Source: an uncultured bacterium
Lineage (GTDB): Bacteria; Fidelibacterota; Marinisomatia; SCGC-AAA003-L08; GCA-002704045
Assembly: GCA_964345035.1 (NCBI GenBank)
Contig: CAYFPO010000003.1
Location: 73,329 to 137,328 of the forward strand
Length of the DNA stretch: 64,000 nt
Reading direction: 5' to 3'
Shown here: in pieces, positions 18,144-54,149 of the stretch
How the letters are laid out: every line of letters begins with the position of its first letter
Position numbering within the stretch: the first letter of the stretch is position 1
Made by a program: the position numbers and the translations under genes
The notes under the pieces: generated by a model
Database searches by the model: none
What the model was told of the DNA's origin: nothing
The model's input: the letters and a program-made list of their open reading frames with translations, nothing else

Positions 18144-18452
18144 ATGAAAATTGTAATAACTACCGAAAAAGATTCAGATTCAGCATATAAATTGGCAGAT
18201 CAAATAATTGATAAAAAACTGGGTGGGTGTGTCCAATGTATTTCAAACATTCAATCAAAGTATTTTTGGAAAGATAAAATTGTAAATGATACAGAAATAT
18301 TATTGATAATTAAAACTATTAATGAAAAGGTAAATGTATTAAAAGAATTTTTAAAAGAGAATCATTCATATCAAATACCGGAAATTATACTGATTGATGT
18401 AGATTCCTTAACCAAGGATTATAGCGATTGGATACAGAATTATCTAAGGTAA
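18144..18452 (+). CDS. cutA: divalent-cation tolerance protein CutA
   Basis: 102 aa. ...CVQCISNIQSKYFWKDKI...LLIIKT...YQIPEII pattern of the CutA1 family. Confidence 0.8.
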   Translation: MKIVITTEKDSDSAYKLADQIIDKKLGGCVQCISNIQSKYFWKDKIVNDTEILLIIKTINEKVNVLKEFLKENHSYQIPEIILIDVDSLTKDYSDWIQNYLR

Positions 18453-18881
18453 TTGCTAAATATCCTGTATAAACTGATATTATATTGTATTACCGATAAC
18501 ATATATTATGTAAAGTTATAGAAATGTTTAATAATGATAGAATCACCTTCTTAAACCAGGAATCCCGGCGATTTTTCTTTTTATGTATATTTTTTTAAAT
18601 TACCAGCTTGAATCCTGATAAAGTCAAAAGTAACCATTCCAGTAGGAAAAATAAATGCAGCTTCTTGTCCAGTAAATTAACAGACCCAAATGAGATATGG
18701 CATTATTTTTAACACACTCCAAGAATAAATTGCACTTAATTCATAAAATCACCCATGAAGTTGATCCAGTGGTTTTGTTTAATGAGTTTTGTCAAAGTAC
18801 TCTTTCATTTATTATTTGTATTAATTGCTTCAAAATTCCATTTAGTTGTGAATTGACTATATCAGGAGTTGTTCTTCCTTC

Positions 18882-19484
18882 TTATACTTTATCCCCCGAA
18901 TAGAAGATAACCTCTTCTGAAATAAATGAATTTAACAGGGTGCCTAAATTTGAATAGAAATCATCTTTTGATTTTTTTAATAACTTTTTTGCGAATTCAC
19001 CTGTCCATTTACTCAAATGGTTTGTTAGAAATTTTTTTGATATTGTTTCTTTTGATGTATCATTTTTCACAACGGAATTAAAAATCAGGTAATACATAAA
19101 TTCTAATTCTGTGGATATATGGTCTGGTGGTTCCTTATTGTCATCGTTGGGATTAAGACCGGCATCAACATAATATTCAATAGCATCAATAGTTGATTCT
19201 CCCATAACCAAACCTTGGGGGTCAAGATAAACAGAACTAAATGGCGCTGCTTCAACCTGATAAGGACCAACAAATAACCTGGAGTATTCTATTTGTAAAT
19301 CCTTCAGAGTATTCTCGTGCTCCAATCTTGTTACGAGTGTATTAACAAGTGTTTCAAATTTGGGGGAAAGATTGCTAAATGTGTCAAATATCGTAGATGA
19401 CAGTTCTGTTAACCTTTTGTCCGGATACTTAAACAATTCTGAAAGAATTTTATATGCATTTGCTCGATATACACTTGGTTGCAT
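18882..19484 (-). CDS. TorD/DmsD-family redox-enzyme maturation chaperone (ArrD-like)
   Basis: 200 aa, helical. YSRLFVGP...APFSSVY motif typical of TorD-like chaperones. Last gene of the molybdoenzyme operon. Confidence 0.7.
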   Translation of the reverse strand: MQPSVYRANAYKILSELFKYPDKRLTELSSTIFDTFSNLSPKFETLVNTLVTRLEHENTLKDLQIEYSRLFVGPYQVEAAPFSSVYLDPQGLVMGESTIDAIEYYVDAGLNPNDDNKEPPDHISTELEFMYYLIFNSVVKNDTSKETISKKFLTNHLSKWTGEFAKKLLKKSKDDFYSNLGTLLNSFISEEVIFYSGDKV

Positions 19485-19501
19485 TGTGATATGGTTCTTA
19501 T

Positions 19502-20191
19502 CTAGAATTCGTCAATGTAAAACACTTTTGGTTTAGTTCCTTTACTTGGTAACAGGGTCCGTACTGAACGCATATTTATGAGTGTTTTTTCTTTGCTGTT
19601 TAGGTTATCCAAATCAACTAAGAGCCGCGCTTCTGCGGGACATACTTCAACACACCAGGGCTTTTCACCATCTGCAAGGCGGTGGTCGCACAGGGTGCAT
19701 TTTTCTACAATACCCTTCCGCCTAACACCTTCATAGGTTTTAGCACGGTCCGGATTGTAGTGGGGAAATGGTACACCATCAAATTTGTCCGCCACTTCTT
19801 TTGCACTCGCGGTAATACCCGGTATTGTTTCCTCTTTGTCATTACGCCATTGGTGTTGTTTTTCTTCATTAAAGCTTATTACATCGTAAGGGCAGGCCAG
19901 TTCACAACTTCTACAGCCGATACAAATATCTGGATCATGCAATGTCAATCCGTCTTCATTCTTATGCATAGCTTCGGTGGGACAGGCTTTAATACATGCT
20001 GCATTCTCGCAATGATTGCATAATTTCGGAATATATTTCCACTTTACATTTGGGAAGACACCCGTGGTTTCTTGGGTATGAAAAGACCAGCTAATATTGT
20101 GATCTAGATTGTTTTCGGTTTTACATGCAATATCACACCCTGCACATCCGACGCAGTTATTTAGATCAATTATCATTCCGTAGTTAGCCAT
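19502..20191 (-). CDS. 4x[4Fe-4S] ferredoxin-type electron-transfer subunit of Mo-bisPGD oxidoreductase (PsrB/ArrB-like)
   Basis: 229 aa. Four Cys groups: CVGCAGCDIAC, CNHCENAACIKACP, CIGCRSCELACP, CTLCDHR...CVEVCP. Confidence 0.9.
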   Translation of the reverse strand: MANYGMIIDLNNCVGCAGCDIACKTENNLDHNISWSFHTQETTGVFPNVKWKYIPKLCNHCENAACIKACPTEAMHKNEDGLTLHDPDICIGCRSCELACPYDVISFNEEKQHQWRNDKEETIPGITASAKEVADKFDGVPFPHYNPDRAKTYEGVRRKGIVEKCTLCDHRLADGEKPWCVEVCPAEARLLVDLDNLNSKEKTLINMRSVRTLLPSKGTKPKVFYIDEF

Positions 20192-20203
20192 AAGATTTCT
20201 CCT

Positions 20204-22750
20204 TTAACTAATTTTTGTAAGATTAACACGAGTTACACCGCCGTGCCTTGCGGTACTCCCACTCAGACGGTCATAATCGGGCGGCAACAAAGCATTATTA
20301 TTTCCGCCCCTTGCTTCACCTTTTGCAAAATCTTTTGAAGCGATACGGCCATAAGCCCAATGTCCTTGCCCATAACATTTTGTTATGGTACCGGGGCGAA
20401 CGCCTTCCCACAGCTTCACATGACAGTTTAACTCACCGCTTGGTGATTGTAATTTTATCAAATCGCCATTTTTTAATGAAAACTGTTTTGCATCTATCGG
20501 GTTGATTTTTGCAACATCATCCCATTTTTCATCACCGGGATCTGCATCTTTATGTGCAAGATACCAGGTAATATTTGCAGATCGGCCCTCACGATTTAAT
20601 CGCGAACGATGTTCAAAAAATATAAATGGATATTTCTTTGGGTCACCGCGCCTGAATGCAGGTTCATAATGAGGGATAAAAGCGATTTCATCCTTTGCTA
20701 AATAATCACATTCGTTAAGAACATGATTAATACTCACACCATGTTTTTCTGCGTGTGCAGCTAAGGATTTTTTGAGTGTTTCACTATAAAATTCGAACTT
20801 TTTAGTTTTGGTCCCAAAGTTGCCCCATTTTTTACGATAGGGATATTTTTTTGAATTCCAAACACCTTTTTCGTAAAGGTCATTCCAGCCTTTGGGGGCA
20901 TCTCCATATTTGCCATAGTTTTTATGGTTTTTATCCCAAAGCGGGTTTGTATAGTACTTTAAGGCAAATAACGAAAATTCAAGACTGTTTTTGGGTTCCA
21001 ATCCGGTTTCAGGATCTTTGAATTCGGTCTTGAAACAATTCAGGAGATTTGGGAATCCTTTCTTATTCAGACTTTCAGCAATTAACCATGGCACTTCAGT
21101 TTCATCCATTTTAGTATCCCAGATGGGTTCAAGAATAGGTTTATTAAGGGCTGCGTAAGCATATAAGTTTTGTTTACTCTTAATAAAGCCATACTTTTCA
21201 AACATTTGGTGACTGGCAGGTAGTACAATATCTGCGAAGTGGCTCATCTCGGATGCATGGGTTGTTATGTGAGCAAAAAAGGGCAGTTTTGTTAATGCTT
21301 TTTCCCACCGGTCGGCTCCACTGCAGGAAAAGGCAAAATTATTCCAATACCCAATGACCACTTTTATATCATAGGGTTTTTCTGCGAGAATTGCGTCAGC
21401 TGCATTATTGGTTACCACACCTTTCCCTGATTTACCTTTTTTTAGGGCAGGGAACTTGAGTGAACCCCGTTGGTCCATTTTTTTATGTTTGTTCCCGGCC
21501 TTTGCAATATCATCGTAATAAGATTTATAAGAAGGCACTTTATTTACGGGAATTTTAGCTGAACGTACGGTACCGCCTTCATTGTCCACAGAACCGACCA
21601 GCCCATTCAAAGCATGCGCAGCCATAGCACTGTACCCACCGCGTACGTGCATTGAAGCACCCGGAGATAACCATGAAATTGCTCTCGGGGCAGCGTCTGC
21701 GAATCCTTTTGCAACGCGGATGATTTGTTCTGCCGGGATGCCGGCACGTTTTTCTGCCCACGACGGTGTTCTGTCTTTGAGTTCTAAATTCCACCATTTT
21801 ATTAAACCGTTTGTATGAATTTCCTTAAATAACGTTTCATCAATTTCCTGGCCTGCTACAAAATGATTTTTACCATCAATAAAATCACCGACAAATTCTT
21901 TAGACCACATTCCATTTTTTAAAATGGTATGTGCAATAGCAACAGCCAGAGCACCATCTTCTCCGGGTATAACAGGCAGCCATTCATTTGCTTTAGTAGC
22001 AGTAGCGGACAATCTTGGGTCAACTACAGCTATTTGTGCCTGTTTGCGAACTTGTCCCCATATACTTGTTGCGTGAGGGACTTGGCGGTTAGAGGCAAGC
22101 GGATCAGCACCCCAACTTAAAACATAGCGAGTCCTTTCCAAATCATAATCTCTGTATCCCCAATATCCTTCCGTAAAAAAAGCGCCAAATTTTTCACTTT
22201 CAGCACAAATAGCGCTATGGGATATACCATTGGGTGATCCAAAAACCTTTGGCATCACTTCATAAATAATGTCTCGCATGTATGTATAACGACCTCTGAA
22301 TACCACAAATTTGTGTGTTTCATTGGACCGTCTTAAGTCCATCATTCTATCGGTAATTGCATCTATGGCTTCTTCCCATGTAATCGGAATAAACTTTGGA
22401 TTTTCGTGGCGTCCCTTTTTCGGATTTGTTCGCTTCATGGGCACTTTGATTCTATCGGGATCATACAGCTGTTGGATGGCCATGTGTGACCGGACACAGG
22501 CTTTCCCATGATTTGCTTTTGAGTAATCATTGCCATTCACTTTTACTGCTCGGCCACCTACAACATTAACCTTAACCGGACACCATGTTGTACATCCCTG
22601 GCAAACACTCGTCATCCAGCTTGATATATTTGCGGTGCTATCTTTTGTCTCCTTAAAAGCACCCAAAAGGGGGAAGCCATTCGCTAATCCCAATATACCT
22701 AAACCAGTAATTGTAGAGAGTGATAGAAATTCTTTTCTTGTGATTCCCAT
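20204..22750 (-). CDS. periplasmic molybdopterin (Mo-bisPGD) oxidoreductase catalytic subunit, Psr/Phs/Arr clade, with ArrA-type active-site pattern
   Basis: 848 aa. Tat-like leader MGITRKEFLSL...; C50-x2-C-x3-C-x27-C85 cluster motif; FRGRY (152-155); H178-S-A-I-C182-A-E-S-E-K187; Y199. Confidence 0.85.
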   Translation of the reverse strand: MGITRKEFLSLSTITGLGILGLANGFPLLGAFKETKDSTANISSWMTSVCQGCTTWCPVKVNVVGGRAVKVNGNDYSKANHGKACVRSHMAIQQLYDPDRIKVPMKRTNPKKGRHENPKFIPITWEEAIDAITDRMMDLRRSNETHKFVVFRGRYTYMRDIIYEVMPKVFGSPNGISHSAICAESEKFGAFFTEGYWGYRDYDLERTRYVLSWGADPLASNRQVPHATSIWGQVRKQAQIAVVDPRLSATATKANEWLPVIPGEDGALAVAIAHTILKNGMWSKEFVGDFIDGKNHFVAGQEIDETLFKEIHTNGLIKWWNLELKDRTPSWAEKRAGIPAEQIIRVAKGFADAAPRAISWLSPGASMHVRGGYSAMAAHALNGLVGSVDNEGGTVRSAKIPVNKVPSYKSYYDDIAKAGNKHKKMDQRGSLKFPALKKGKSGKGVVTNNAADAILAEKPYDIKVVIGYWNNFAFSCSGADRWEKALTKLPFFAHITTHASEMSHFADIVLPASHQMFEKYGFIKSKQNLYAYAALNKPILEPIWDTKMDETEVPWLIAESLNKKGFPNLLNCFKTEFKDPETGLEPKNSLEFSLFALKYYTNPLWDKNHKNYGKYGDAPKGWNDLYEKGVWNSKKYPYRKKWGNFGTKTKKFEFYSETLKKSLAAHAEKHGVSINHVLNECDYLAKDEIAFIPHYEPAFRRGDPKKYPFIFFEHRSRLNREGRSANITWYLAHKDADPGDEKWDDVAKINPIDAKQFSLKNGDLIKLQSPSGELNCHVKLWEGVRPGTITKCYGQGHWAYGRIASKDFAKGEARGGNNNALLPPDYDRLSGSTARHGGVTRVNLTKIS

Positions 22751-22767
22751 AATGATACTCCTTTTAG

Positions 22768-23682
22768 TTAAAATTGAAACCCAGCAGATATGTGTATTTG
22801 CCCGCCGATAATCATTAAATGTTTCATTGTAAATCCGCCAAAGAGGATGAGTACACAGATTAAGATTGTCATGAAATTAGGCAGCTCGCGTTCCCGTCTC
22901 ATTATTGACCTAAAACACAGGAGCATTGGTATAATTGTGCCCCCAAACAAAACAATCAACGTCCAGATAACACCATAATTTTCCATAAAAATACCAAAGC
23001 TTAATCCCTGTTCAAGGTCTAATCTTCCAGAGTAATATTGCCATAAAATAATCGATATTAATTGCACGATTAAAAGAATGATGAACATTACTCTAAAGCG
23101 ATCTAATCCTAAGGGAAGATGAATTTTGGCTTCTTCACCATGATCTTTATGTCCACCTTTTTTTAGCTGTTGAAACAGGAGGACAAAAGCAATTCCTGAT
23201 GTTAAAGAAGATGCAATAAACATGCCCGGGGTAAGTTCTGACCATAACACTCTCCCCAATGATGACATATATAATCCGTGGTACAAACCGACCGAAAGTG
23301 CCAGAAAAGACCCTACAATTTTTACAAAATGCATCTGAGGTTTGTGGTGAAAATTCTTATAAACTAAATAAGCATAATATGTAGAGAATATGACAAAGAA
23401 TGTTTGTAAAAATACACCAATTGACATAACGGATTGAAGATTGATATTCCAGAAGGTTTTAATAAACCTAGAGGGAACGCCCAATTTCCAGATAAGAATT
23501 AATAATCCGGATATGACAGTGACCGGTGCAATATAAGCACCGAGTTTAATTGAAAGGGTGTGTTCTTCCTTGTCGTAAATACTTAATAAAACAGACAGCA
23601 AAAATGCACCAACACCAATCCCCCCTAAAAATAAATCAATGGTTACACGAACATCCCAGGCACCTAAATTCAAATAATCCAT
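22768..23682 (-). CDS. NrfD/PsrC-type integral membrane quinol-interacting anchor subunit
   Basis: 304 aa with about 8 TM helices and no haem motifs. Sits 17 nt upstream of the catalytic subunit gene. Confidence 0.8.
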   Translation of the reverse strand: MDYLNLGAWDVRVTIDLFLGGIGVGAFLLSVLLSIYDKEEHTLSIKLGAYIAPVTVISGLLILIWKLGVPSRFIKTFWNINLQSVMSIGVFLQTFFVIFSTYYAYLVYKNFHHKPQMHFVKIVGSFLALSVGLYHGLYMSSLGRVLWSELTPGMFIASSLTSGIAFVLLFQQLKKGGHKDHGEEAKIHLPLGLDRFRVMFIILLIVQLISIILWQYYSGRLDLEQGLSFGIFMENYGVIWTLIVLFGGTIIPMLLCFRSIMRRERELPNFMTILICVLILFGGFTMKHLMIIGGQIHISAGFQF

Positions 23683-23730
23683 GGTTATCTCCTTAATTTT
23701 GTTGAATTGGTAAAATCATAATTTCTACAG

Positions 23731-24681
23731 TTAAAACTTGAACTGAAAGTTTATAAAAAAGACAGTTGTTTTATCTTCTCCACCGACAGTTGTCATTCTT
23801 AGGTTTGGTGCAATATAAAGACCTTTACCCGGCTTAAGTTCTATACCAGCTATTATGTAATCTTCGCCATCATTGTCTGTATTTGTATCCGGGTCAAACA
23901 TATCATATCGCCCAAAAATATTGATCTTATCTGAAACCTTGTAAACCGCATAAGACGAAATAAGTTGTTCGGACTGATCAATACCACCATCTTTTTTAGA
24001 ATTAAACTCAACGCCGAGTCTAACATTATTCCCTGCATATCCGCCAAATATTCCCTGTACGGTTTCATTTTCAACAGTTACAGAGTCAACATCATAGGGC
24101 TCATAAGAAAAAACCAATCCCGCATTGAAACCATCTTTTGAAGAAAGTTTTTTCTGTCCAATCATCCCAAGAAATGAAATCTTTTTGTGTGAATCATCTT
24201 CGCTTTTCTTATAGCCTACACCATTTGTGTAAAGAGCACTAATAAAGATATTCCTGCCAAAAGTATTTGAATATCCAATCCCCATGTCTGCAGAACTCGA
24301 GAACTTATTTTTATCCATCGCCGATTTTTCAATGAAGCGATAACCCCAGGTTTTTTCCTGCACACCAAATATATTCATACCCTGCAATCCTATTGTTATT
24401 TTCCCGTTCGTAGTTTTCCAATCAACTTTGGCATTTTTTAGATAAACATTTTTAGGGGAGTTTTTATAGTCAATATCGGTCTGGATCTTAATGCTCAGAT
24501 TCTCATCCAGGTTATTAGTAAAGGTTAAATAAACTCTGGAGACTTTAAACCCGGCATCATTTTCTGCATTTTCAGTAAAATCGTATGAATAATCATAAAA
24601 TACAAGATTTCCAATTTTTGGATTTCCATAAATAACTGTTACACACACAGTAATCAAAAATATTATTATTCGTTTAAACAT
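23731..24681 (-). CDS. outer-membrane beta-barrel (porin-like) protein
   Basis: 316 aa with a signal peptide, alternating amphipathic beta-strand pattern and a C-terminal ...FINFQFKF ending in Phe. First gene of the molybdoenzyme operon (48-nt gap to the next gene). Confidence 0.65.
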   Translation of the reverse strand: MFKRIIIFLITVCVTVIYGNPKIGNLVFYDYSYDFTENAENDAGFKVSRVYLTFTNNLDENLSIKIQTDIDYKNSPKNVYLKNAKVDWKTTNGKITIGLQGMNIFGVQEKTWGYRFIEKSAMDKNKFSSSADMGIGYSNTFGRNIFISALYTNGVGYKKSEDDSHKKISFLGMIGQKKLSSKDGFNAGLVFSYEPYDVDSVTVENETVQGIFGGYAGNNVRLGVEFNSKKDGGIDQSEQLISSYAVYKVSDKINIFGRYDMFDPDTNTDNDGEDYIIAGIELKPGKGLYIAPNLRMTTVGGEDKTTVFFINFQFKF

Positions 24682-25079
24682 GGTTTTCTCCTTTATTTAA
24701 TTAACCAAAGTTTTTTATTCATAATGCTTCTGCCATATCCCTTTCATCCACAGGGTAATTCTTTGATTGTGCTTCAAGGAACATTACAGCTTGAACAGCA
24801 TATTGATATAAATTTGAATATAAATGTGAAATAATCAACATATTTACGATAATTTGGTCTATTTATCTTATAATAAATTAGAGCTATATTTTTATATATA
24901 TCAAATATGATTTAGTAAAATATAGTATTAATGTAGCTTATGGGTTTAACAAGAAGATTGATTTATTTTTATAGGTGGTATTAGAGGATATATTTTAAAA
25001 TATCTCAGAAATTATTTTTAATTAGTTAGAAATATTCCTAAATATTGGTAATTTACTATAGTTAGTATAACTAATAGTT
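24682..25079. promoter_or_regulatory. divergent control region between the porin/molybdoenzyme operon and the LysR gene
   Basis: 398-bp very AT-rich non-coding spacer between divergent starts. Contains the dyad TAGTTA-GTA-TAACTA at 25059-25073, just upstream of the LysR ATG. No promoter elements were assigned with confidence. Confidence 0.4.
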
Positions 25080-25970
25080 ATGAAAGGTTCACGAATTTAT
25101 ATTGATATATTTAAAGTGTTCTGTAATGCTGCTGAAACAAAGAGTTTTTCCAGGGCGGCTGAAATTAATTTCATCACTCAATCTGCAGTAAGTCAACAGA
25201 TTTCATTCCTGGAGAGTTACTTTGGTAAGCAGCTCATTATCCGAGGTAAAGGAAAATTTGCCCTAACTCAAGAGGGAGAACTATTTTTAAAGGGCTGTAA
25301 AACTATTCTTCATACCTATCAATCCACTTTAGATAAAATGCAGTCTGAACCCGGTGAAATAGCCCAAACCATCAATATAGAAACTATTTACTCAATTGGT
25401 TTCTATCATCTTCCCCCTTTGGTGAAATCATTTATGAAAAAGTATAATCAGCTGAATCTTCATTTGGAATATAACCGCTCAGACAAAATTTATTCAGATG
25501 TTATTCAGGGTGTATGTGATTTTGGAATTGTTGCCTACCCCTGGCAGCATCCTCTGGTGGATATAATCTTAGGACCTAAGGAAAAACTTATTTGCGTCTT
25601 TTCACCATCATTTGAGTTTGCACAAAAAACAAGACTTCGTGTAAAAGATATGGATGGAAAAAGTTGTATTGGATTTAGTAAAGAGATTCCAACTCGGAGT
25701 GCAGTTGATTCTTTATTTGCCGGGAGCAAAACTAAAGTAAATATTATTCATGAGTTTGATAATTTAGAAACTCTGAAAAGGTGTTTGGAGCTGGGGCAGG
25801 GATTTTCATTTTTACCTGAGAATACAGTGCAGGAGGAATTGAAGAAAAAAGACTTAATGACAGTACCAGTTACCGGAGAACCTATTTACAGAGAAACAGG
25901 AATAATCACCCGTAAAGACCGCCCCCTTTCACGGGCAACAACAGCAGCAATAAATCATCTCCTTAAATAA
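25080..25970 (+). CDS. LysR-family transcriptional regulator
   Basis: 296 aa. N-terminal wHTH (FSRAAEINFITQSAVSQQISFLE) plus a periplasmic-binding-protein-like effector domain. Confidence 0.9.
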   Translation: MKGSRIYIDIFKVFCNAAETKSFSRAAEINFITQSAVSQQISFLESYFGKQLIIRGKGKFALTQEGELFLKGCKTILHTYQSTLDKMQSEPGEIAQTINIETIYSIGFYHLPPLVKSFMKKYNQLNLHLEYNRSDKIYSDVIQGVCDFGIVAYPWQHPLVDIILGPKEKLICVFSPSFEFAQKTRLRVKDMDGKSCIGFSKEIPTRSAVDSLFAGSKTKVNIIHEFDNLETLKRCLELGQGFSFLPENTVQEELKKKDLMTVPVTGEPIYRETGIITRKDRPLSRATTAAINHLLK

Positions 25971-26064: not shown

Positions 26065-27879
26065 TTAACCTGGTCCCGATTTAAGGAGAAACGATTCATA
26101 GATATTTTGGATTTTTGATTTATAAATCGTCACCCATTTATTTATAGATTTTATATTTTCATCCATATAAGGCTTTGCCCTGGAAATTTCCATACAATAG
26201 TCCATGCCATCGCACATATTTTCGTAGAAAGATTTCAAAAATTTCAGGGAATGTTTTGAACCATCACTTTCCTTCACTCGATCTATAAAATACTCAACAT
26301 ACATTTGAATTTCTTTTGCAAACATATGTGGTCGATTGGAATCTACCAGAGATTTGCAACGGCCATAGAAATGATCAATCATTTCTTTAAGCGTATATTC
26401 TCTATTGAACCATGCGGTGTTTTGCCCTGGGCAAATTGCTGTTGGTAAATCCAACTTCCGTGAAATACCCAATTCAATTAAAGCACCATTACCCAGGTGA
26501 TCACATAAGCAAGTTTTTGTAATAACCTCCAAATGTTTTGATTTTTGAATATTTAAATCTCTGAAATTACCATCTAATTCAGCAATTTTTTTAGATTGAT
26601 AGTCGCAGGATGCAGTACATATCTCTTTTTCTGTAAACTCAGTATTGGATTTTAGAAATCCTTTGGGACACGGTGAACCCGGTTTCCCTAATTCATATTG
26701 CTGTTCTGTCCAGAGTTGAGATTCTGAGTTACGTAAATTATTAAAAGGAACACCTAATGGTGAAGCATTACTCAGATACAAGTCTTTTTCCCCAGCGTTC
26801 ATTAATTTATTTCGTGTAGGCGGGTCAACACAAGTAGCCTCAGGGACTAGTAAGAAAGGAGATGCAACACCCACCAAATCCATCCCAAAATTTTCAATGA
26901 GACGTTTTACCTCACCAGAAGTACCCACACCACCCTGAACAGTAATCAAAGGATTATGCTCTTTTACAGAAGCGGGTATGTCCCAACCCATTTTATCGTA
27001 GTACTTTTCAATAAGTGGTCGAAATGCTACTGATAATTGCTCTCTCTTTTCTCTAAATTCTTTTAATAAGACAGGAAGTAAATACCCATTAGACGCAAAG
27101 GCGTGCCCCCCACAGTTTAATCCTGATTCAATTCGAAATTCAAATACTTCCAAACCCTTCTTAGCTAAGAATTTACCCTGAATTAGTGCCGATCTGAAGT
27201 CACTTACTTTCAGTATAATCTTCTTTTTTATTTTTCCGGTTTTATCACGGAAAAAATCCAAATACTCACCCATAGAGCTGTATAGTCCTTGATTAATTCC
27301 TGCAGAAAATATGATACATGAGTTTAAAGTGCTGTTTGCAAATCCACGTAATGCTGATCTGGCATCACTAAATTCCTCACTTAATCGATTCCCCATTTTA
27401 TCTAAGTGCAATCGATCTACTTTTGACATGATATTTACATTGATTGATCCTGGAGTCATTTGCATTGTGAGCTCATCTGCTTTTTCATTTTTCAACTTAC
27501 CGGGCACCATTTCCTTTAGTTGAATCCAGGCACTTTTTAATGGACTATCTTCCGGGAGCATAGAAAAGTACCTTTCTTTATCATTATTCTGAAAAAAAGG
27601 TTGGGCTTGAACTTCTTTAAATTTCAAATTTACAATTTGTTGAACTGTTTCTAAATATGCCGTAATTCGTTTGGCTCTACCGTCTTTAGTCCGTCGAGGT
27701 ATCACCTTGTAGGGCAATGAAAATTCATTACAATAATGTTTCCTAATTTTTTCCACTAACAAATCATCGATAATAGAAATGACTGATGTAATTCCCAAAT
27801 GAGCCACTCTGATTGGAGAATCTATCGTAAATCCTGTTCCCATTACAGGAATATGAATATTGTGTGTATTATTATCCAT
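26065..27879 (-). CDS. uncharacterised 604-aa protein with NMO/FabK-like FMN TIM-barrel motifs and a Cys-rich C-terminal region
   Basis: IESGLNCGGHAF and VQGGVGTSGEVKRLIENFGMDLVGVASPFLLVPEA resemble the EAGGH and GGI..G...GA.gv..GT.fl..E motifs of nitronate monooxygenase/enoyl-reductase-like enzymes. The C-terminus carries several Cys pairs (CPKG, CTASC, CLCDH, CPG). Confidence 0.4.
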   Translation of the reverse strand: MDNNTHNIHIPVMGTGFTIDSPIRVAHLGITSVISIIDDLLVEKIRKHYCNEFSLPYKVIPRRTKDGRAKRITAYLETVQQIVNLKFKEVQAQPFFQNNDKERYFSMLPEDSPLKSAWIQLKEMVPGKLKNEKADELTMQMTPGSINVNIMSKVDRLHLDKMGNRLSEEFSDARSALRGFANSTLNSCIIFSAGINQGLYSSMGEYLDFFRDKTGKIKKKIILKVSDFRSALIQGKFLAKKGLEVFEFRIESGLNCGGHAFASNGYLLPVLLKEFREKREQLSVAFRPLIEKYYDKMGWDIPASVKEHNPLITVQGGVGTSGEVKRLIENFGMDLVGVASPFLLVPEATCVDPPTRNKLMNAGEKDLYLSNASPLGVPFNNLRNSESQLWTEQQYELGKPGSPCPKGFLKSNTEFTEKEICTASCDYQSKKIAELDGNFRDLNIQKSKHLEVITKTCLCDHLGNGALIELGISRKLDLPTAICPGQNTAWFNREYTLKEMIDHFYGRCKSLVDSNRPHMFAKEIQMYVEYFIDRVKESDGSKHSLKFLKSFYENMCDGMDYCMEISRAKPYMDENIKSINKWVTIYKSKIQNIYESFLLKSGPG

Positions 27880-46428: not shown

Positions 46429-48528
46429 TTAATGTAGCACTAAAAACTTTTCAGTTTTTATCATTTCCCCTGCCTTGTGAGTCATCAAATACATACCAGA
46501 ACTTACTATATTTCCGCTAAAATCCCTTCCATTCCAGGATAATTGGATGTATTTATCAATTGGAGGGTATTCATTATATAAATTTGCTACTTTCCTGCCT
46601 AAAATGTCGTATATATCTACAGAATACGGTACATTTTCATCTGTTATTACATAGGTATCAACAAAACTATATTGATTGGTATAAAAGGGATTTGGGTGAA
46701 CAATGATCTCATTCAGTGTGTCCTGAATTGCAATAAAACTGGAATCAATAAATGAAATTCTAACAGCCCAATTCCCAATTAATTGATCACCTGATGTAAA
46801 TGTGACATTTTCCAACTTAGAAAATGTATTTCCATTCAAAGAATAATATGAATGTCCATTGTGTATTAAAGATTCGCTGTAACCAATTGCATTATCATAC
46901 ATTTCAATAACCACATAAACAATTTCATTATCAACTAAAATCTCAGAGTCTGTCAAATTGATCTTATTCCAACCAGTGCCGATAGGTGAGCATATATATT
47001 CAAAATATTGTGGAGTGTAAGTAAATCCACCCTTCATTATTTTAATGGTAACCGGTGAATCATTTGCAACATTAATCTCTACTTCAGTCAATAATGCTCC
47101 GGATTCAAATAGAAATGTATTTGCGCCATACCACCCATCTGTATTGCCAATATCAATATATGCAAATATTTCATCATTGTCATAATTAATCTGATTGACT
47201 GAATTTATAGAATCCATCGTTATTGTTGTCTCACTTGCTTGATTTTCAGCATCATGGGTAATAAATGAATACATATATTCATTTCCATAATTATTCTGAG
47301 GAAATATCCAAATTCCCTCCTCAGAGTTTTCCAGAATTTCTTTGATTGTTAGATCTATAAGGCTGCTGGTCTCGCGGGTATTTAATTCTGTGAGTAATTC
47401 TTTCTGTACATTTTCGGGTATAAATATATGCCTGGAAGAATATGCGGGTAGTGTGGGAGAATTTATTTCCACTTCGTCATCTAAATTTAATGTAATATCT
47501 TCCTGGGGCGAAATACCGCTGATACAATCTGTGATTGGATAATTATCAAGTATTATATCCACTATCCATTGATCAAAGAATTGGTCAAATGGAATTTCAG
47601 TAATATATGTAGCATACCAATATTTTACAGATTCCAGCCGATTATATTCTGCATCCAGAAAAATCTGTTGAATAAAGGGTAGTCCCAGTTCGTCATTTTC
47701 GTAAAGATACTGCATAAATAATGCAGATTTTGAATAATATGGAAGAGTATTCGCCCCCCATTCATCAAGACCGATCTGTGTATCTGCAAGAAAATGGCCA
47801 TAATTTCTGTGACCTAATCCCAAGATTGACGGTGCAAGATCTGCCAATCCTTCATCCAGCCAAGGATTCCCAACCGCTTCATTTGGATCAGAATTATAAT
47901 GGAGTAAATGCTCATACTCATGAGCCAATGTATACATTGCTTCTTCAGGGTTATTGGAGGTTATATCAACAGGATCACAGTCAATATATATGATATCCAT
48001 CTCATTACTCGTAGGTGAATTGGTTTGGTCATTTTGATCAAAATAACCTGCCACATAATTTCCGGAGCCGGAAAAGTTATCACGGACATCCAATATCAAA
48101 ATATTGACTATTTCTGTGCCGTCTTTATTTGGTGGTGGACCAAATAAAGATTCCTCAGCAGATTTGATTCCAAATTTATGTTCAATATGATTAGCAAAAG
48201 GGGTTTCGGCGGTAAAAATATTCACAAGGTTGGTCAACCCTGCCGGTGAAATATACTCTGAGTTATTTTTTGACGACTCTATAAAAAACCTGGAATTCTC
48301 ATTTTCTGCAGCGAGGTCAAATTCTACGCATTCAAAATAATAATCACCGGTATTAGGCTGGAGAACATTCTTACGGATCTTGAATTGATTACTGTCGCAT
48401 TCCAGGTATTGGCGTGAAAGATATTCTCCTTGAATCAGGTCAGAATTTCCACACAGTCCGTATTGAGTATAACAAATTGAAATTAATGATATACTGATTC
48501 CAATGAATTTAATCCGAATGTTCATCAA
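46429..48528 (-). CDS. secreted gluzincin-type zinc metalloprotease with T9SS C-terminal sorting domain
   Basis: 699 aa with a signal peptide. HEYEH-x18-E (AHEYEHLLH...WLDEGLA) is the HEXXH-X18-E signature. The C-terminus HPNPF...SGMYLM...KFLVLH is a T9SS CTD-like beta-sandwich. Confidence 0.7.
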   Translation of the reverse strand: MMNIRIKFIGISISLISICYTQYGLCGNSDLIQGEYLSRQYLECDSNQFKIRKNVLQPNTGDYYFECVEFDLAAENENSRFFIESSKNNSEYISPAGLTNLVNIFTAETPFANHIEHKFGIKSAEESLFGPPPNKDGTEIVNILILDVRDNFSGSGNYVAGYFDQNDQTNSPTSNEMDIIYIDCDPVDITSNNPEEAMYTLAHEYEHLLHYNSDPNEAVGNPWLDEGLADLAPSILGLGHRNYGHFLADTQIGLDEWGANTLPYYSKSALFMQYLYENDELGLPFIQQIFLDAEYNRLESVKYWYATYITEIPFDQFFDQWIVDIILDNYPITDCISGISPQEDITLNLDDEVEINSPTLPAYSSRHIFIPENVQKELLTELNTRETSSLIDLTIKEILENSEEGIWIFPQNNYGNEYMYSFITHDAENQASETTITMDSINSVNQINYDNDEIFAYIDIGNTDGWYGANTFLFESGALLTEVEINVANDSPVTIKIMKGGFTYTPQYFEYICSPIGTGWNKINLTDSEILVDNEIVYVVIEMYDNAIGYSESLIHNGHSYYSLNGNTFSKLENVTFTSGDQLIGNWAVRISFIDSSFIAIQDTLNEIIVHPNPFYTNQYSFVDTYVITDENVPYSVDIYDILGRKVANLYNEYPPIDKYIQLSWNGRDFSGNIVSSGMYLMTHKAGEMIKTEKFLVLH

Positions 48529-52691: not shown

Positions 52692-54149
52692 TTAATTACT
52701 TGGTACTTCAACCGTCCTGCCTTTTCTGTCAGTCTTTACAAGCCAGACATCGCAGAGACCGGCACCATAAGAGCAAGTAGTACCAAGTATGATATTCCCA
52801 CCATCGGTGGTTGGATGCATCACTCTGGCAAAATCAAATTTTGCACCGCCGATTACTTCTTTCCACAGAATTACTCCATCCTTATCTGTCTGAAAATAAA
52901 TCAAGTCTGAGAACATATCTATTTGAGTGTAGCCGGATATTAGATACTCACCCGTTTTCATTGCAACCACAGAATTTCCCCAATGATAACCCGATTCGTG
53001 AAAAGTTCGGGTCCATTCCTCAATTCCCAATTTGTCTGTCTTAATGAGCCATAAATCGGATATATTTTCTACAATGGATTTGGTCATTCCGGTGATGATA
53101 TATCCACCATCTAAAGTTGGTGAAATATCATGTCCAATATCCTCGCCGGGTCCACCAAATTGGTTTTCCCAGATAATTTCACCTTCAGTGCTTAATGCTG
53201 CAACCCAACAGTTTGAATCATCAGCATCATTTGATCTGATAGATCCTGTCATAATAACTCCACCACTTTTCAATGGCTTAAATGACCTGCTGATCCTAAG
53301 ATAATTATCTGAATATTTTTTCTCCCAGATAATTTTACCATCTATATTTATTCCCATTAAAAATGTACCAAATTTATCTGTGCTGTTCTCTATATTGTTT
53401 GAGAAATAGCCGGTTACAATGATATGATCATTTATCCAGATTACGTCATTCGCCCAGTTAAATCCTGTATCATAGATAGTTCTCTCCCATATAATTTCAC
53501 CGGTGAGTGTCAATTTAATAATCCATACTTTCGAGTATTCTGAATTCCCAATTTTACCTGATAAATACAAATGATTATCATTACTCAATACTGCTGCATT
53601 TACTTCATCAGTCTGTTCCCTATCAATTCTTTTCTCCCATTCTTTGACACCCACACTATCTGTTTTTACAACCCAGGCATCCATATCCCGTGTATCCTTG
53701 TGCTTACTGGTGGCTATGAGTAAGTAACCTCCATCAGGACAAAAAATGAGGTCCATACCTTTTTCATTTTGATCAGTGCCGTAGGTATTTGAAAAAATCA
53801 AAGTTGGGTTGATATAGAACTCATTTTCAGCACTCCAATCACTTTTATCTTTATTGTTAACAGCACGAACTTTCCAAATATAATGTCCAATCGGAATTTC
53901 TGGCAGGAGCATAAGTGTATCCTTCATATTAAAAATCAGTGTATTTTCTAAATTATCCACCGGCTGAATGTGCAAATCGTAAGATTTAGAATTTTCGGAA
54001 CCGTGCCACTTAAATGTAAGATGTGCAGTATCACGTATTAATAATTTTTCTAGTGGAATTATTTTAGGTATGGATAATGTACTTGTTGGATTATCCTGAG
54101 ATAATACTATGCAGATAAGTATCACCGGAAAATACAGATAATATTTCAA
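52692..54149 (-). CDS. secreted repeat protein (Fn3-like N-domain plus about seven beta-propeller-type repeats)
   Basis: 485 aa with a signal peptide. Seven recurrences of the pattern GGY.I.G......D.W..K.D..G...WE (for example DAWVVKTDSVGVKEWEK, DLWLIKTDKLGIEEWTR, DVWLVKTDRKGRT). Confidence 0.6.
   Translation of the reverse strand: MKYYLYFPVILICIVLSQDNPTSTLSIPKIIPLEKLLIRDTAHLTFKWHGSENSKSYDLHIQPVDNLENTLIFNMKDTLMLLPEIPIGHYIWKVRAVNNKDKSDWSAENEFYINPTLIFSNTYGTDQNEKGMDLIFCPDGGYLLIATSKHKDTRDMDAWVVKTDSVGVKEWEKRIDREQTDEVNAAVLSNDNHLYLSGKIGNSEYSKVWIIKLTLTGEIIWERTIYDTGFNWANDVIWINDHIIVTGYFSNNIENSTDKFGTFLMGINIDGKIIWEKKYSDNYLRISRSFKPLKSGGVIMTGSIRSNDADDSNCWVAALSTEGEIIWENQFGGPGEDIGHDISPTLDGGYIITGMTKSIVENISDLWLIKTDKLGIEEWTRTFHESGYHWGNSVVAMKTGEYLISGYTQIDMFSDLIYFQTDKDGVILWKEVIGGAKFDFARVMHPTTDGGNIILGTTCSYGAGLCDVWLVKTDRKGRTVEVPSN

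Follow-up and report, generated by a model that had tools for sequence, protein, structure and literature searches.

A predicted respiratory arsenate reductase encoded in a porin-headed operon of an uncultured Marinimicrobia bacterium

A group of Marinimicrobia (SAR406) is probably able to respire arsenate, as judged from a gene cluster on contig CAYFPO010000003.1 of assembly GCA_964345035.1. We analyzed a 64,000-nucleotide (nt) stretch of this contig, positions 73,329 to 137,328, referred to here as the window. A sequence-only reading had assigned one of its open reading frames (ORFs) to ArrA, the catalytic subunit of respiratory arsenate reductase, because its active site followed the ArrA pattern and not a generic polysulfide-reductase one. 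Homology, motif analysis, a tree and hidden Markov model (HMM) scores all upheld this assignment as the best reading of the sequence. A script check reproduced the ORF at 20204–22750 on the minus strand, its length of 848 amino acids (aa), and every residue and codon coordinate that had been given for it. We hold with good confidence that the gene encodes ArrA within a complete porin-arrC-arrA-arrB-arrD operon, whose product is most likely a quinol:arsenate oxidoreductase for anaerobic respiration.

The cluster comprises the following predicted features, in window coordinates:

18882–19484, minus strand: arrD, a TorD/DmsD-family chaperone for twin-arginine translocation (Tat) proofreading and cofactor insertion (200 aa; from Pfam and NCBIfam)
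19502–20191, minus strand: arrB, the electron-transfer subunit, predicted to carry four [4Fe-4S] clusters (229 aa, whose 16 Cys fall into four groups; from PDB chain 6cz7_B and NCBIfam)
20204–22750, minus strand: arrA, the catalytic subunit of respiratory arsenate reductase, carrying molybdenum bis(pyranopterin guanine dinucleotide) (Mo-bisPGD) (848 aa; from PDB, NCBIfam and the tree)
22154–22297, minus strand: active-site segment of ArrA with R152-G-R154-Y155, H178, S179, the presumed Mo-ligand C182, K187 and Y199 (from alignment and the motif rule)
22496–22603, minus strand: [4Fe-4S] (FS0) motif of ArrA, C50-x2-C53-x3-C57-x27-C85, equivalent to Cys61/64/68/96 of Shewanella sp. ANA-3 ArrA
22658–22750, minus strand: Tat-type signal peptide of ArrA, approximately residues 1–31, with the motif T-R-K-E-F-L, which aligns with S/T-R-R-x-F-L of relatives
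22768–23682, minus strand: arrC, an NrfD/PsrC-type quinol-oxidizing membrane anchor (304 aa; from Pfam NrfD)
23731–24681, minus strand: first gene of the operon, encoding an outer-membrane porin modeled with 16 strands and assigned to the phosphate-porin O/P family (316 aa, with a signal peptide and a C-terminal F; from homologues and an AlphaFold2 model)
25080–25970, plus strand: a divergent LysR-family regulator (from Pfam HTH_1 and LysR_substrate)

The window protein lies nearer to characterized ArrA than to other enzymes of the dimethyl sulfoxide (DMSO)-reductase family. A phmmer search of all PDB chains returned 6cz7_A, the ArrA of Shewanella sp. ANA-3, as top match (E 1.5e-287, 959 bits), with query residues 41–845 aligned almost gap-free; the next family was represented by Thermus polysulfide reductase, 2vpw_A, at 174 bits. 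BLASTP identity was 49.9% to ANA-3 ArrA, 31.0% to ArxA, 27.5% to Thermus PsrA and 24.4% to PhsA. NCBIfam models ranked in the same direction, with ArrA at 1128 bits, PhsA at 260 (well short of its cut-off of 694), DmsA at 167 and TtrA at 87. The pattern is homology, not chance.

The active site corresponds to that of ANA-3 ArrA residue by residue. The four FS0 cysteines (C50 at nt 22601–22603, C85 at nt 22496–22498) are invariant in a conservation alignment of 199 relatives, 119 from a protein search and 80 from GTDB species genomes. They are followed by F-R152-G-R154-Y155 (R152 at nt 22295–22297), H178-S179-A-I-C182-A-E-S-E-K187 and Y199 (nt 22154–22156). Adding 40 to the 6cz7_A chain index gives native positions 165 (R), 166 (Y), 189 (H), 190 (S), 193 (C), 198 (K) and 210 (Y), and in the phmmer alignment the window number equals the ANA-3 native number minus 11 at every site. 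PMC10654088 names Cys61/64/68/96 as the [4Fe-4S] ligands of ArrA, and Tyr166, His189, Ser190, Lys198 and Tyr210 as hydrogen-bonding the substrate; these correspond to window residues 50/53/57/85 and 155/178/179/187/199. The residue numbering given in the sequence-only reading was free of error: of its seven residues at a constant offset of 11, PMC10654088 covers five and the 6cz7_A alignment all seven. Conservation is near complete, with R152, G153, R154, Y155, H178, S179, C182 and Y199 invariant in 199/199 relatives and K187 present in 194. We take Arg165 (window R154) to be a further substrate contact and Cys193 (window C182) to be the Mo-ligand; both are conserved in the alignment.

These residues distinguish ArrA from its neighboring families. 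As set out in PMC6549141, ArxA has XGRGWG at the position of the ArrA (R/K)GRY motif, a difference that separates reductases from Arx oxidases. Our ArxA reference (YGRGWG) differs from the window protein at positions 152 (Y), 155 (G) and 187 (V) and retains the H, S, Mo-Cys, Y199 and R154 equivalents. PhsA and Thermus PsrA lack equivalents of R152, R154, K187 and Y199, which is most of the set. The claim that (R/K)GRY sets ArrA apart from Arx and Psr/Phs enzymes therefore agrees both with the rule in that source and with these three references, and the combined pattern RGRY plus H-S-x2-C-x4-K...Y, sought in polysulfide and thiosulfate reductases, was missing from the PhsA and Thermus PsrA examined.

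An exhaustive phmmer search of 1.84 billion 50%-identity cluster representatives located the boundary of the motif. At 38% identity to the query or above, full-length representatives have RGRY, in nearly every case together with H-S-C-K-Y; in four, the last two of those positions hold Y/F, N or E. The exceptions to RGRY in this range are two representatives, P0364 and P0366, with KGRS and H-D-C-K-Y. They are 44–47% identical to the window ArrA and may form an ArrA sister group with an altered substrate pocket. Below about 36% identity the motif becomes GRGWG or takes other forms.

Phylogeny places the window protein among arsenate reductases. We built a neighbor-joining tree of 100 taxa and 840 columns from Kimura-corrected distances with 100 bootstraps. 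The window protein and ANA-3 ArrA fall in one clade with 100% bootstrap support; ArxA branches as its sister and PhsA/PsrA form the outgroup, so the placement inside PsrA/PhsA clades that we looked for did not appear. Two cultured arsenate reducers, Mesobacillus selenatarsenatis SF-1 and Tepidibacillus infernus, also have homologues in the ArrA clade. Within it, the window protein belongs to a marine subclade (100% support) that contains a protein labeled Candidatus Marinimicrobia by NCBI and adjoins a Firmicutes ArrA group. Judged by isolate names such as those of Saanich Inlet 'SI' and Black Sea 'NIOZ-UU' and 'BS750m' bins, many of the related ArrA genes stem from anoxic marine basins. Two references came from tblastn searches of plasmids: ArxA from Cereibacter azotoformans plasmid pORIO3, where an arxX-S-R-B2-A-B-C-D cluster adjoins arsA-acr3-arsC, and PhsA from phsABC on an E. 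coli plasmid. The same plasmid search returned no ArrA above 31% identity.

The partner genes complete the enzyme. The five minus-strand ORFs, porin-arrC-arrA-arrB-arrD, are all intact and spaced 12–48 nt apart. ArrB has 6cz7_B as best PDB match (E 3e-74, 253 bits) and the ArrB model as top NCBIfam match (299.7 bits). Pfam NrfD covers residues 8–298 of ArrC (E 2.2e-30), which has at least seven hydrophobic segments, and ArrD matches Pfam Nitrate_red_del (E 5e-31) and NCBIfam TorD/DmsD models. These assignments bear out the earlier remark that the order NrfD anchor, A, B and TorD-like chaperone resembles arrC-A-B-D clusters, as does synteny across 80 GTDB loci: arrA is followed by arrB in all 80 and, beyond it, by arrD in 75, and it is directly preceded by an ArrC homologue in 36, among them Desulfitobacterium, Desulfosporosinus and M. 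selenatarsenatis. ArrABC is described as a quinol:arsenate oxidoreductase with ArrAB on the positive side of the membrane, in which ArrA holds one Mo-bisPGD and one [4Fe-4S], ArrB four [4Fe-4S] and ArrC an NrfD-like quinol site (PMC8076601). The divergent LysR protein probably regulates the operon; its best NCBIfam match, 'selenium metabolism-associated LysR', reaches 156 bits, under the cut-off of 250. Promoter and terminator scans of 18300–25200 returned sites no commoner than in shuffled sequence.

The operon is headed by a predicted porin of a family that recurs beside arr genes. The 316-aa protein has no match of its own in Pfam (E 0.01) or NCBIfam, and Pfam Porin_O_P (PF07396) is matched by 27 of its 55 homologues. 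From an alignment of this family, AlphaFold2 models the protein as a 16-stranded barrel in which residues 103–124 form a helical loop (predicted local distance difference test 91, predicted template modeling score 0.83), and Foldseek matched the model to trimeric porins including the anion-selective Omp32 and OprP. Like OprP/OprO (Pfam Porin_O_P; PDB 2O4V), the model has 16 strands and a helix-bearing constriction loop; unlike OprP, the window porin is about 100 residues shorter, and Foldseek puts OmpT, OmpF/C and Omp32 as high as OprP. We dropped an OprP-specific reading, keeping only the O/P-family assignment, because general porins rank equally and because relatives of the porin also lead a Psr-like operon. 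Of the 80 GTDB loci, 8 have a porin homologue co-directional with arrA and no more than 2.5 kb away; they come from Gemmatimonadota, Rhodothermales, Thermoanaerobaculia and uncultured lineages. Porins are also co-directional with arr genes in four further loci, L085, L086, L089 and L090. Members of the family are mostly from Marinimicrobia.

Porin paralogues occur in two other Marinimicrobia settings. At L084:2378-11893, a 63% identical paralogue heads a separate Psr/Phs-like molybdoenzyme operon, in the order PhnD-like binding protein, kinase, sigma54 regulator, porin, Fe-S subunit (299 aa), molybdoenzyme (818 aa) and TorD-like protein. That molybdoenzyme scores 387 bits with the PhsA HMM, below its cut-off, and shares 25% identity with the window ArrA; its genes run B-A-D with no NrfD gene. 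At L087/L088:5009-7948, a 49% paralogue lies divergently beside Na/Pi cotransporter and PhoU genes and not far from PhoH, a context that fits a phosphate-uptake role of the ancestral porin family. The family may admit oxyanions, and operons for periplasmic oxyanion reductases may have taken up copies of it; the arr copy would then admit arsenate, an analogue of phosphate.

Related loci place arr genes beside arsenic genes. Genes within 10 kb of ArrA in the 80 related loci include those for an ArxX/ArrX-like periplasmic binding protein (28 loci), ArsR (21), ACR3 (14), an ArsP-like permease (13) and ArsA (4). On a 236-kb JGI contig (L089; ArrA 78% identical), arsR, a CDF gene, arsC of the low-molecular-weight protein tyrosine phosphatase type and ACR3 are followed by genes for a PhnD-like protein, a histidine kinase and a sigma54 regulator, then by tatA, porin, arrC, arrA, arrB and arrD. 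A Marinimicrobia metagenome-assembled genome (MAG), GCA_022562605.1 (L090; ArrA 78%), repeats the window layout, LysR-porin-arrCABD, with identities of 60% for LysR, 58% for the porin, 58% for arrC and 72% for arrB; downstream of its arrD lie genes for molybdenum-cofactor biosynthesis, namely moaA, moaC/B, moeA and a ThiF-family (moeB-like) gene. L085 and L086 have porin-arrCABD again, in a chromosomal neighborhood unlike that of the window. In the nearest GTDB relative (L002; ArrA 80%), PhnD-like, kinase and sigma54-regulator genes stand upstream in place of LysR.

Among known Arr systems, ANA-3 ArrAB (PDB 6CZ7-6CZA) has [4Fe-4S] and Mo-ligand cysteines, an (R/K)GRY motif and substrate contacts identical to those of the window cluster, together with a four-cluster ArrB. 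We know of no porin or arrD of the window kind in the ANA-3 operon. According to PMC2762525, ANA-3 has no ArrC and its enzyme is fed by the tetrahaem CymA, whereas the window encodes an NrfD-type ArrC. The arrCABD clusters of Firmicutes (Desulfitobacterium and Desulfosporosinus MAGs, M. selenatarsenatis SF-1, T. infernus) share the order C-A-B-D, have ArrA proteins 60–67% identical to that of the window and form its sister clade in the tree. Their hosts are monoderm and lack the porin, and the clusters usually stand beside an ArrX-like binding protein, kinase and regulator and/or arsR, acr3 and arsP, where the window has only LysR. We rejected Melioribacter roseus, an arsenate respirer of the Fibrobacteres–Chlorobi–Bacteroidetes (FCB) group, as a model because its enzymes are of Ttr and Psr type, not Arr type.

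We propose a path for arsenate respiration built on these parts. Arsenate would enter across the outer membrane through the phosphate-porin-family channel of the operon. ArrC, an NrfD-type protein without cofactors, would oxidize menaquinol in the inner membrane, as expected from its family, and ArrB would relay the electrons along its four [4Fe-4S] clusters to the single [4Fe-4S] cluster and the Mo-bisPGD of periplasm-facing ArrA. There, R154, Y155, H178, S179, K187 and Y199 would hold arsenate beside the Mo-ligand C182 for reduction to arsenite. ArrD, as a TorD-type chaperone, would keep ArrA for cofactor insertion ahead of Tat export, and LysR would control the operon. A Tat-type signal, Fe-S and Mo ligands, a complete arsenate pocket, a four-cluster ArrB and homologues of anchor and chaperone are all recognizable in the predicted proteins; from these we infer the activity of the enzyme, its direction in vivo, its quinol donor, the role of the porin and control by LysR.

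Several observations weigh against assigning this cluster to arsenate respiration, and the first concerns the HMM score. At 1128 bits, the window protein does not reach the 1600-bit cut-off of the NCBIfam ArrA equivalog, NF041714, which ANA-3 ArrA passes. We calibrated this model by scoring ANA-3 ArrA, Firmicutes homologues and ArxA:

Mature ANA-3 ArrA: 1702 bits
Anoxybacillus sp. TBDG-1 homologue: 1149 bits
Desulfitobacterium MAG homologue: 1148 bits
Tepidibacillus infernus homologue: 1147 bits
Window protein: 1128 bits
Mesobacillus selenatarsenatis SF-1 homologue: 1120 bits
Validated ArxA: 438 bits

In titles cited by PMC12016495, 'selenate- and arsenate-respiring' describes T. infernus and 'selenate- and arsenate-reducing' describes M. 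selenatarsenatis SF-1. We dismissed the missed cut-off as evidence against ArrA, since homologues from cultured arsenate-reducing Firmicutes also fall below it. Because these homologues score 1120–1150 bits and ArxA 438, the shortfall points to a narrow model and not to another family. Only the Shewanella-type sequence passes the cut-off, which explains why public homologues are labeled only in general terms, as 'molybdopterin-dependent oxidoreductase' or 'anaerobic selenocysteine-containing dehydrogenase'. The lesson for annotation is that the NCBI ArrA equivalog is so narrow that most non-Shewanella ArrAs are called 'molybdopterin-dependent oxidoreductase'. The sequence-only reading had expected such enzymes to be annotated psrABC as a rule; the names of database homologues are generic and not psrA.

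The remaining reservations concern the tree, the operon and its setting. The tree is a distance tree whose outgroups are one ArxA, one PhsA and one partial PsrA, with SrrA, TtrA and Wolinella PsrA left out. The Tat motif of ArrA reads R-K (R5-K6, nt 22733–22738), which could slow export; R-R is found in 193 of the 199 relatives and R-K in one other, P0002. L002 retains only N- and C-terminal remnants of arrC, between porin and arrA (L002:7981-8165), so the cluster is not uniformly maintained; these remnants may reflect an internal deletion or an assembly artefact. Neither a homologue of ACR3, ArsC, ArsR, ArsA or ArsP, by homology search and Pfam survey, nor an ArrX/S/R sensor system was found in the window. 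The first of these results agrees with the sequence-only reading, which had noted that no ars detoxification genes lie there. Their absence weighs less because the 78%-identical relative L089, with the same arrCABD operon, adjoins arsR-arsC-acr3. Arr enzymes are reported to be reversible in vitro, and direction is therefore not fixed by sequence alone. Seawater contains arsenate at only tens of nanomolar; for ArrAB, Glasser and colleagues reportedly found in 2018 a Km of some tens of micromolar. How much energy a cell would gain in the open ocean is therefore uncertain.

Three other explanations have to be set against arsenate respiration. The one that survives best, though we consider it unlikely, is an ArrA-clade enzyme whose main substrate is another oxyanion, such as selenate, antimonate or another tetrahedral oxyanion, or a decaying, non-functional relic. 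Its appeal comes from the nanomolar arsenate of seawater, from a LysR closest to the selenium-metabolism model with no ArrX/S/R sensor, from the R-K Tat motif and the loss of arrC in L002, and from a porin family that also heads a Psr-like operon and adjoins phosphate-transport genes and so is not arsenate-specific. Yet all arsenate-contact residues are the same as in the crystallized enzyme, the five ORFs are intact with gaps of 12–48 nt, and L089 adjoins arsR-arsC-acr3. LysR-porin-arrCABD is moreover kept at 58–78% protein identity in another Marinimicrobia MAG, L090, which argues for purifying selection.

Marginally less probable again is an Arr/Arx-type enzyme running as an anaerobic arsenite oxidase into the quinone pool, for example coupled to nitrate reduction in oxygen-deficient water. 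Arr enzymes are reported to work in both directions in vitro. ArxA, of the same DMSO-reductase subfamily, is the sister family at 31% identity; it shares the H, S, Mo-Cys, Y199 (ANA-3 Y210) and R154 equivalents, and Arx clusters have the same A/B/NrfD/TorD set. The ArxA of C. azotoformans pORIO3, however, has YGRGWG for RGRY and V for K198, comes with an extra arxB2, no homologue of which adjoins the window arrA, and lies outside the ArrA clade, where the window protein nests with homologues of cultured arsenate reducers at 100% bootstrap. The ArrA HMM gives this reference 438 bits against 1128 for the window protein, and by the rule in PMC6549141 the latter, with RGRY and not XGRGWG, groups with the reductases. 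We favor reduction over oxidation because of this correlation between RGRY or GRGWG and direction, together with the clade shared with cultured arsenate reducers.

The third alternative, a polysulfide, thiosulfate or sulfur reductase of the PsrABC/PhsABC type acting in sulfur cycling, shares with Arr the three-subunit complex iron–sulfur molybdoenzyme plan of A, four-cluster B and NrfD anchor (Thermus, PDB 2VPW), gives the second-best structural and HMM matches (PhsA, 260 bits) and accords with the psrABC and sulfur metabolism that the literature assigns to Marinimicrobia (PMC8359478), but its chances are negligible, since sequence comparison already contradicts it: identity is 24–27% to PhsA/PsrA against 50% to ArrA, the PhsA score falls short of both its cut-off of 694 and the ArrA score of 1128, the arsenate-binding set (R152, R154, K187 and Y199 equivalents) is missing from PhsA/PsrA, these enzymes form the outgroup with 100% support, and other Marinimicrobia have a distinct Psr/Phs-like enzyme (L084, 25% identity).

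The arr cluster belongs to a Marinimicrobia chromosome and may have arrived there from elsewhere. In ENA the contig is k127_56023 (135 kb) of ERZ930066 / ERR2281805. The remaining genes of the window are housekeeping ones (IF-2, NusA, PNPase, LeuRS, MutL, Fmt, Def and similar). The window PNPase is at most 70% identical to any database protein; its named best matches, at 64–66%, are Candidatus Marinimicrobia, apart from one labeled Thaumarchaeota that we take to be mis-binned. We rejected a chimeric contig in view of the housekeeping genes on both flanks and the presence of LysR-porin-arrCABD in an independent Marinimicrobia MAG. GC content at third codon positions is 0.33–0.37 in arrA, arrB and arrC, compared with 0.18–0.29 in flanking housekeeping genes. 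This elevation hints at lateral acquisition and suggests that the arr module (18882–23682) was acquired in that way.

Neither the enzyme family nor its motifs nor the arrCABD layout is new; the novelty lies in the host and the attached porin. Marinimicrobia (SAR406) are among the most abundant heterotrophs of the dark, oxygen-poor ocean, and Saunders and colleagues reportedly described arsenate-respiration genes (arrA) in marine oxygen-deficient pelagic waters in 2019. Within a limited literature collection, we found no paper linking Marinimicrobia, Marinisomatota or SAR406 to arrA or arsenate respiration. A 2023 survey of known arrA lineages does not include Marinimicrobia (PMC10060404), which are discussed only for psrABC and sulfur (PMC8359478). 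On our assignment, at least one Marinimicrobia lineage has an Arr-type enzyme instead of, or besides, Psr-like ones. If so, the arsenate-respiration genes of oxygen-deficient seawater would gain a taxonomic host, and the electron acceptors inferred for an abundant uncultured group would change. The operon-encoded O/P-family porin and LysR are a modestly new accessory feature, and the recurrence of a phosphate-porin-family gene as the leading gene of diderm arr operons would be a small addition to the known Arr system. Only tentatively do we go further and suggest that Marinimicrobia could host pelagic dissimilatory arsenate reduction through a self-contained LysR-porin-arrCABD cluster, that the porin could enable capture of nanomolar arsenate, that part of the 'psr' sulfur reading could be arsenic respiration, and that the porin could be an undescribed Arr accessory of diderms.

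Other ORFs complete the picture of the window. In the 398-bp interval between the LysR gene and the porin, 24682–25079 when counted from the end of the porin ORF, public annotation places a 40-codon ORF (24719–24841), perhaps a gene fragment. Its C-terminal 28 residues match at 68% a stretch of L090 that, downstream of arrD there, is called as part of an Rrf2-family gene. Three large ORFs have no match in Pfam or NCBIfam: 26065–27879 (604 aa), 46429–48528 (699 aa) and 52692–54149 (485 aa). The first of these, flanked by the LysR gene and a GH114 gene, is without a homologue in the related arr loci. At 568–1533, about 17 kb from the arr operon, the window encodes a XerC/D-type tyrosine recombinase with Phage_integrase and SAM-like domains.

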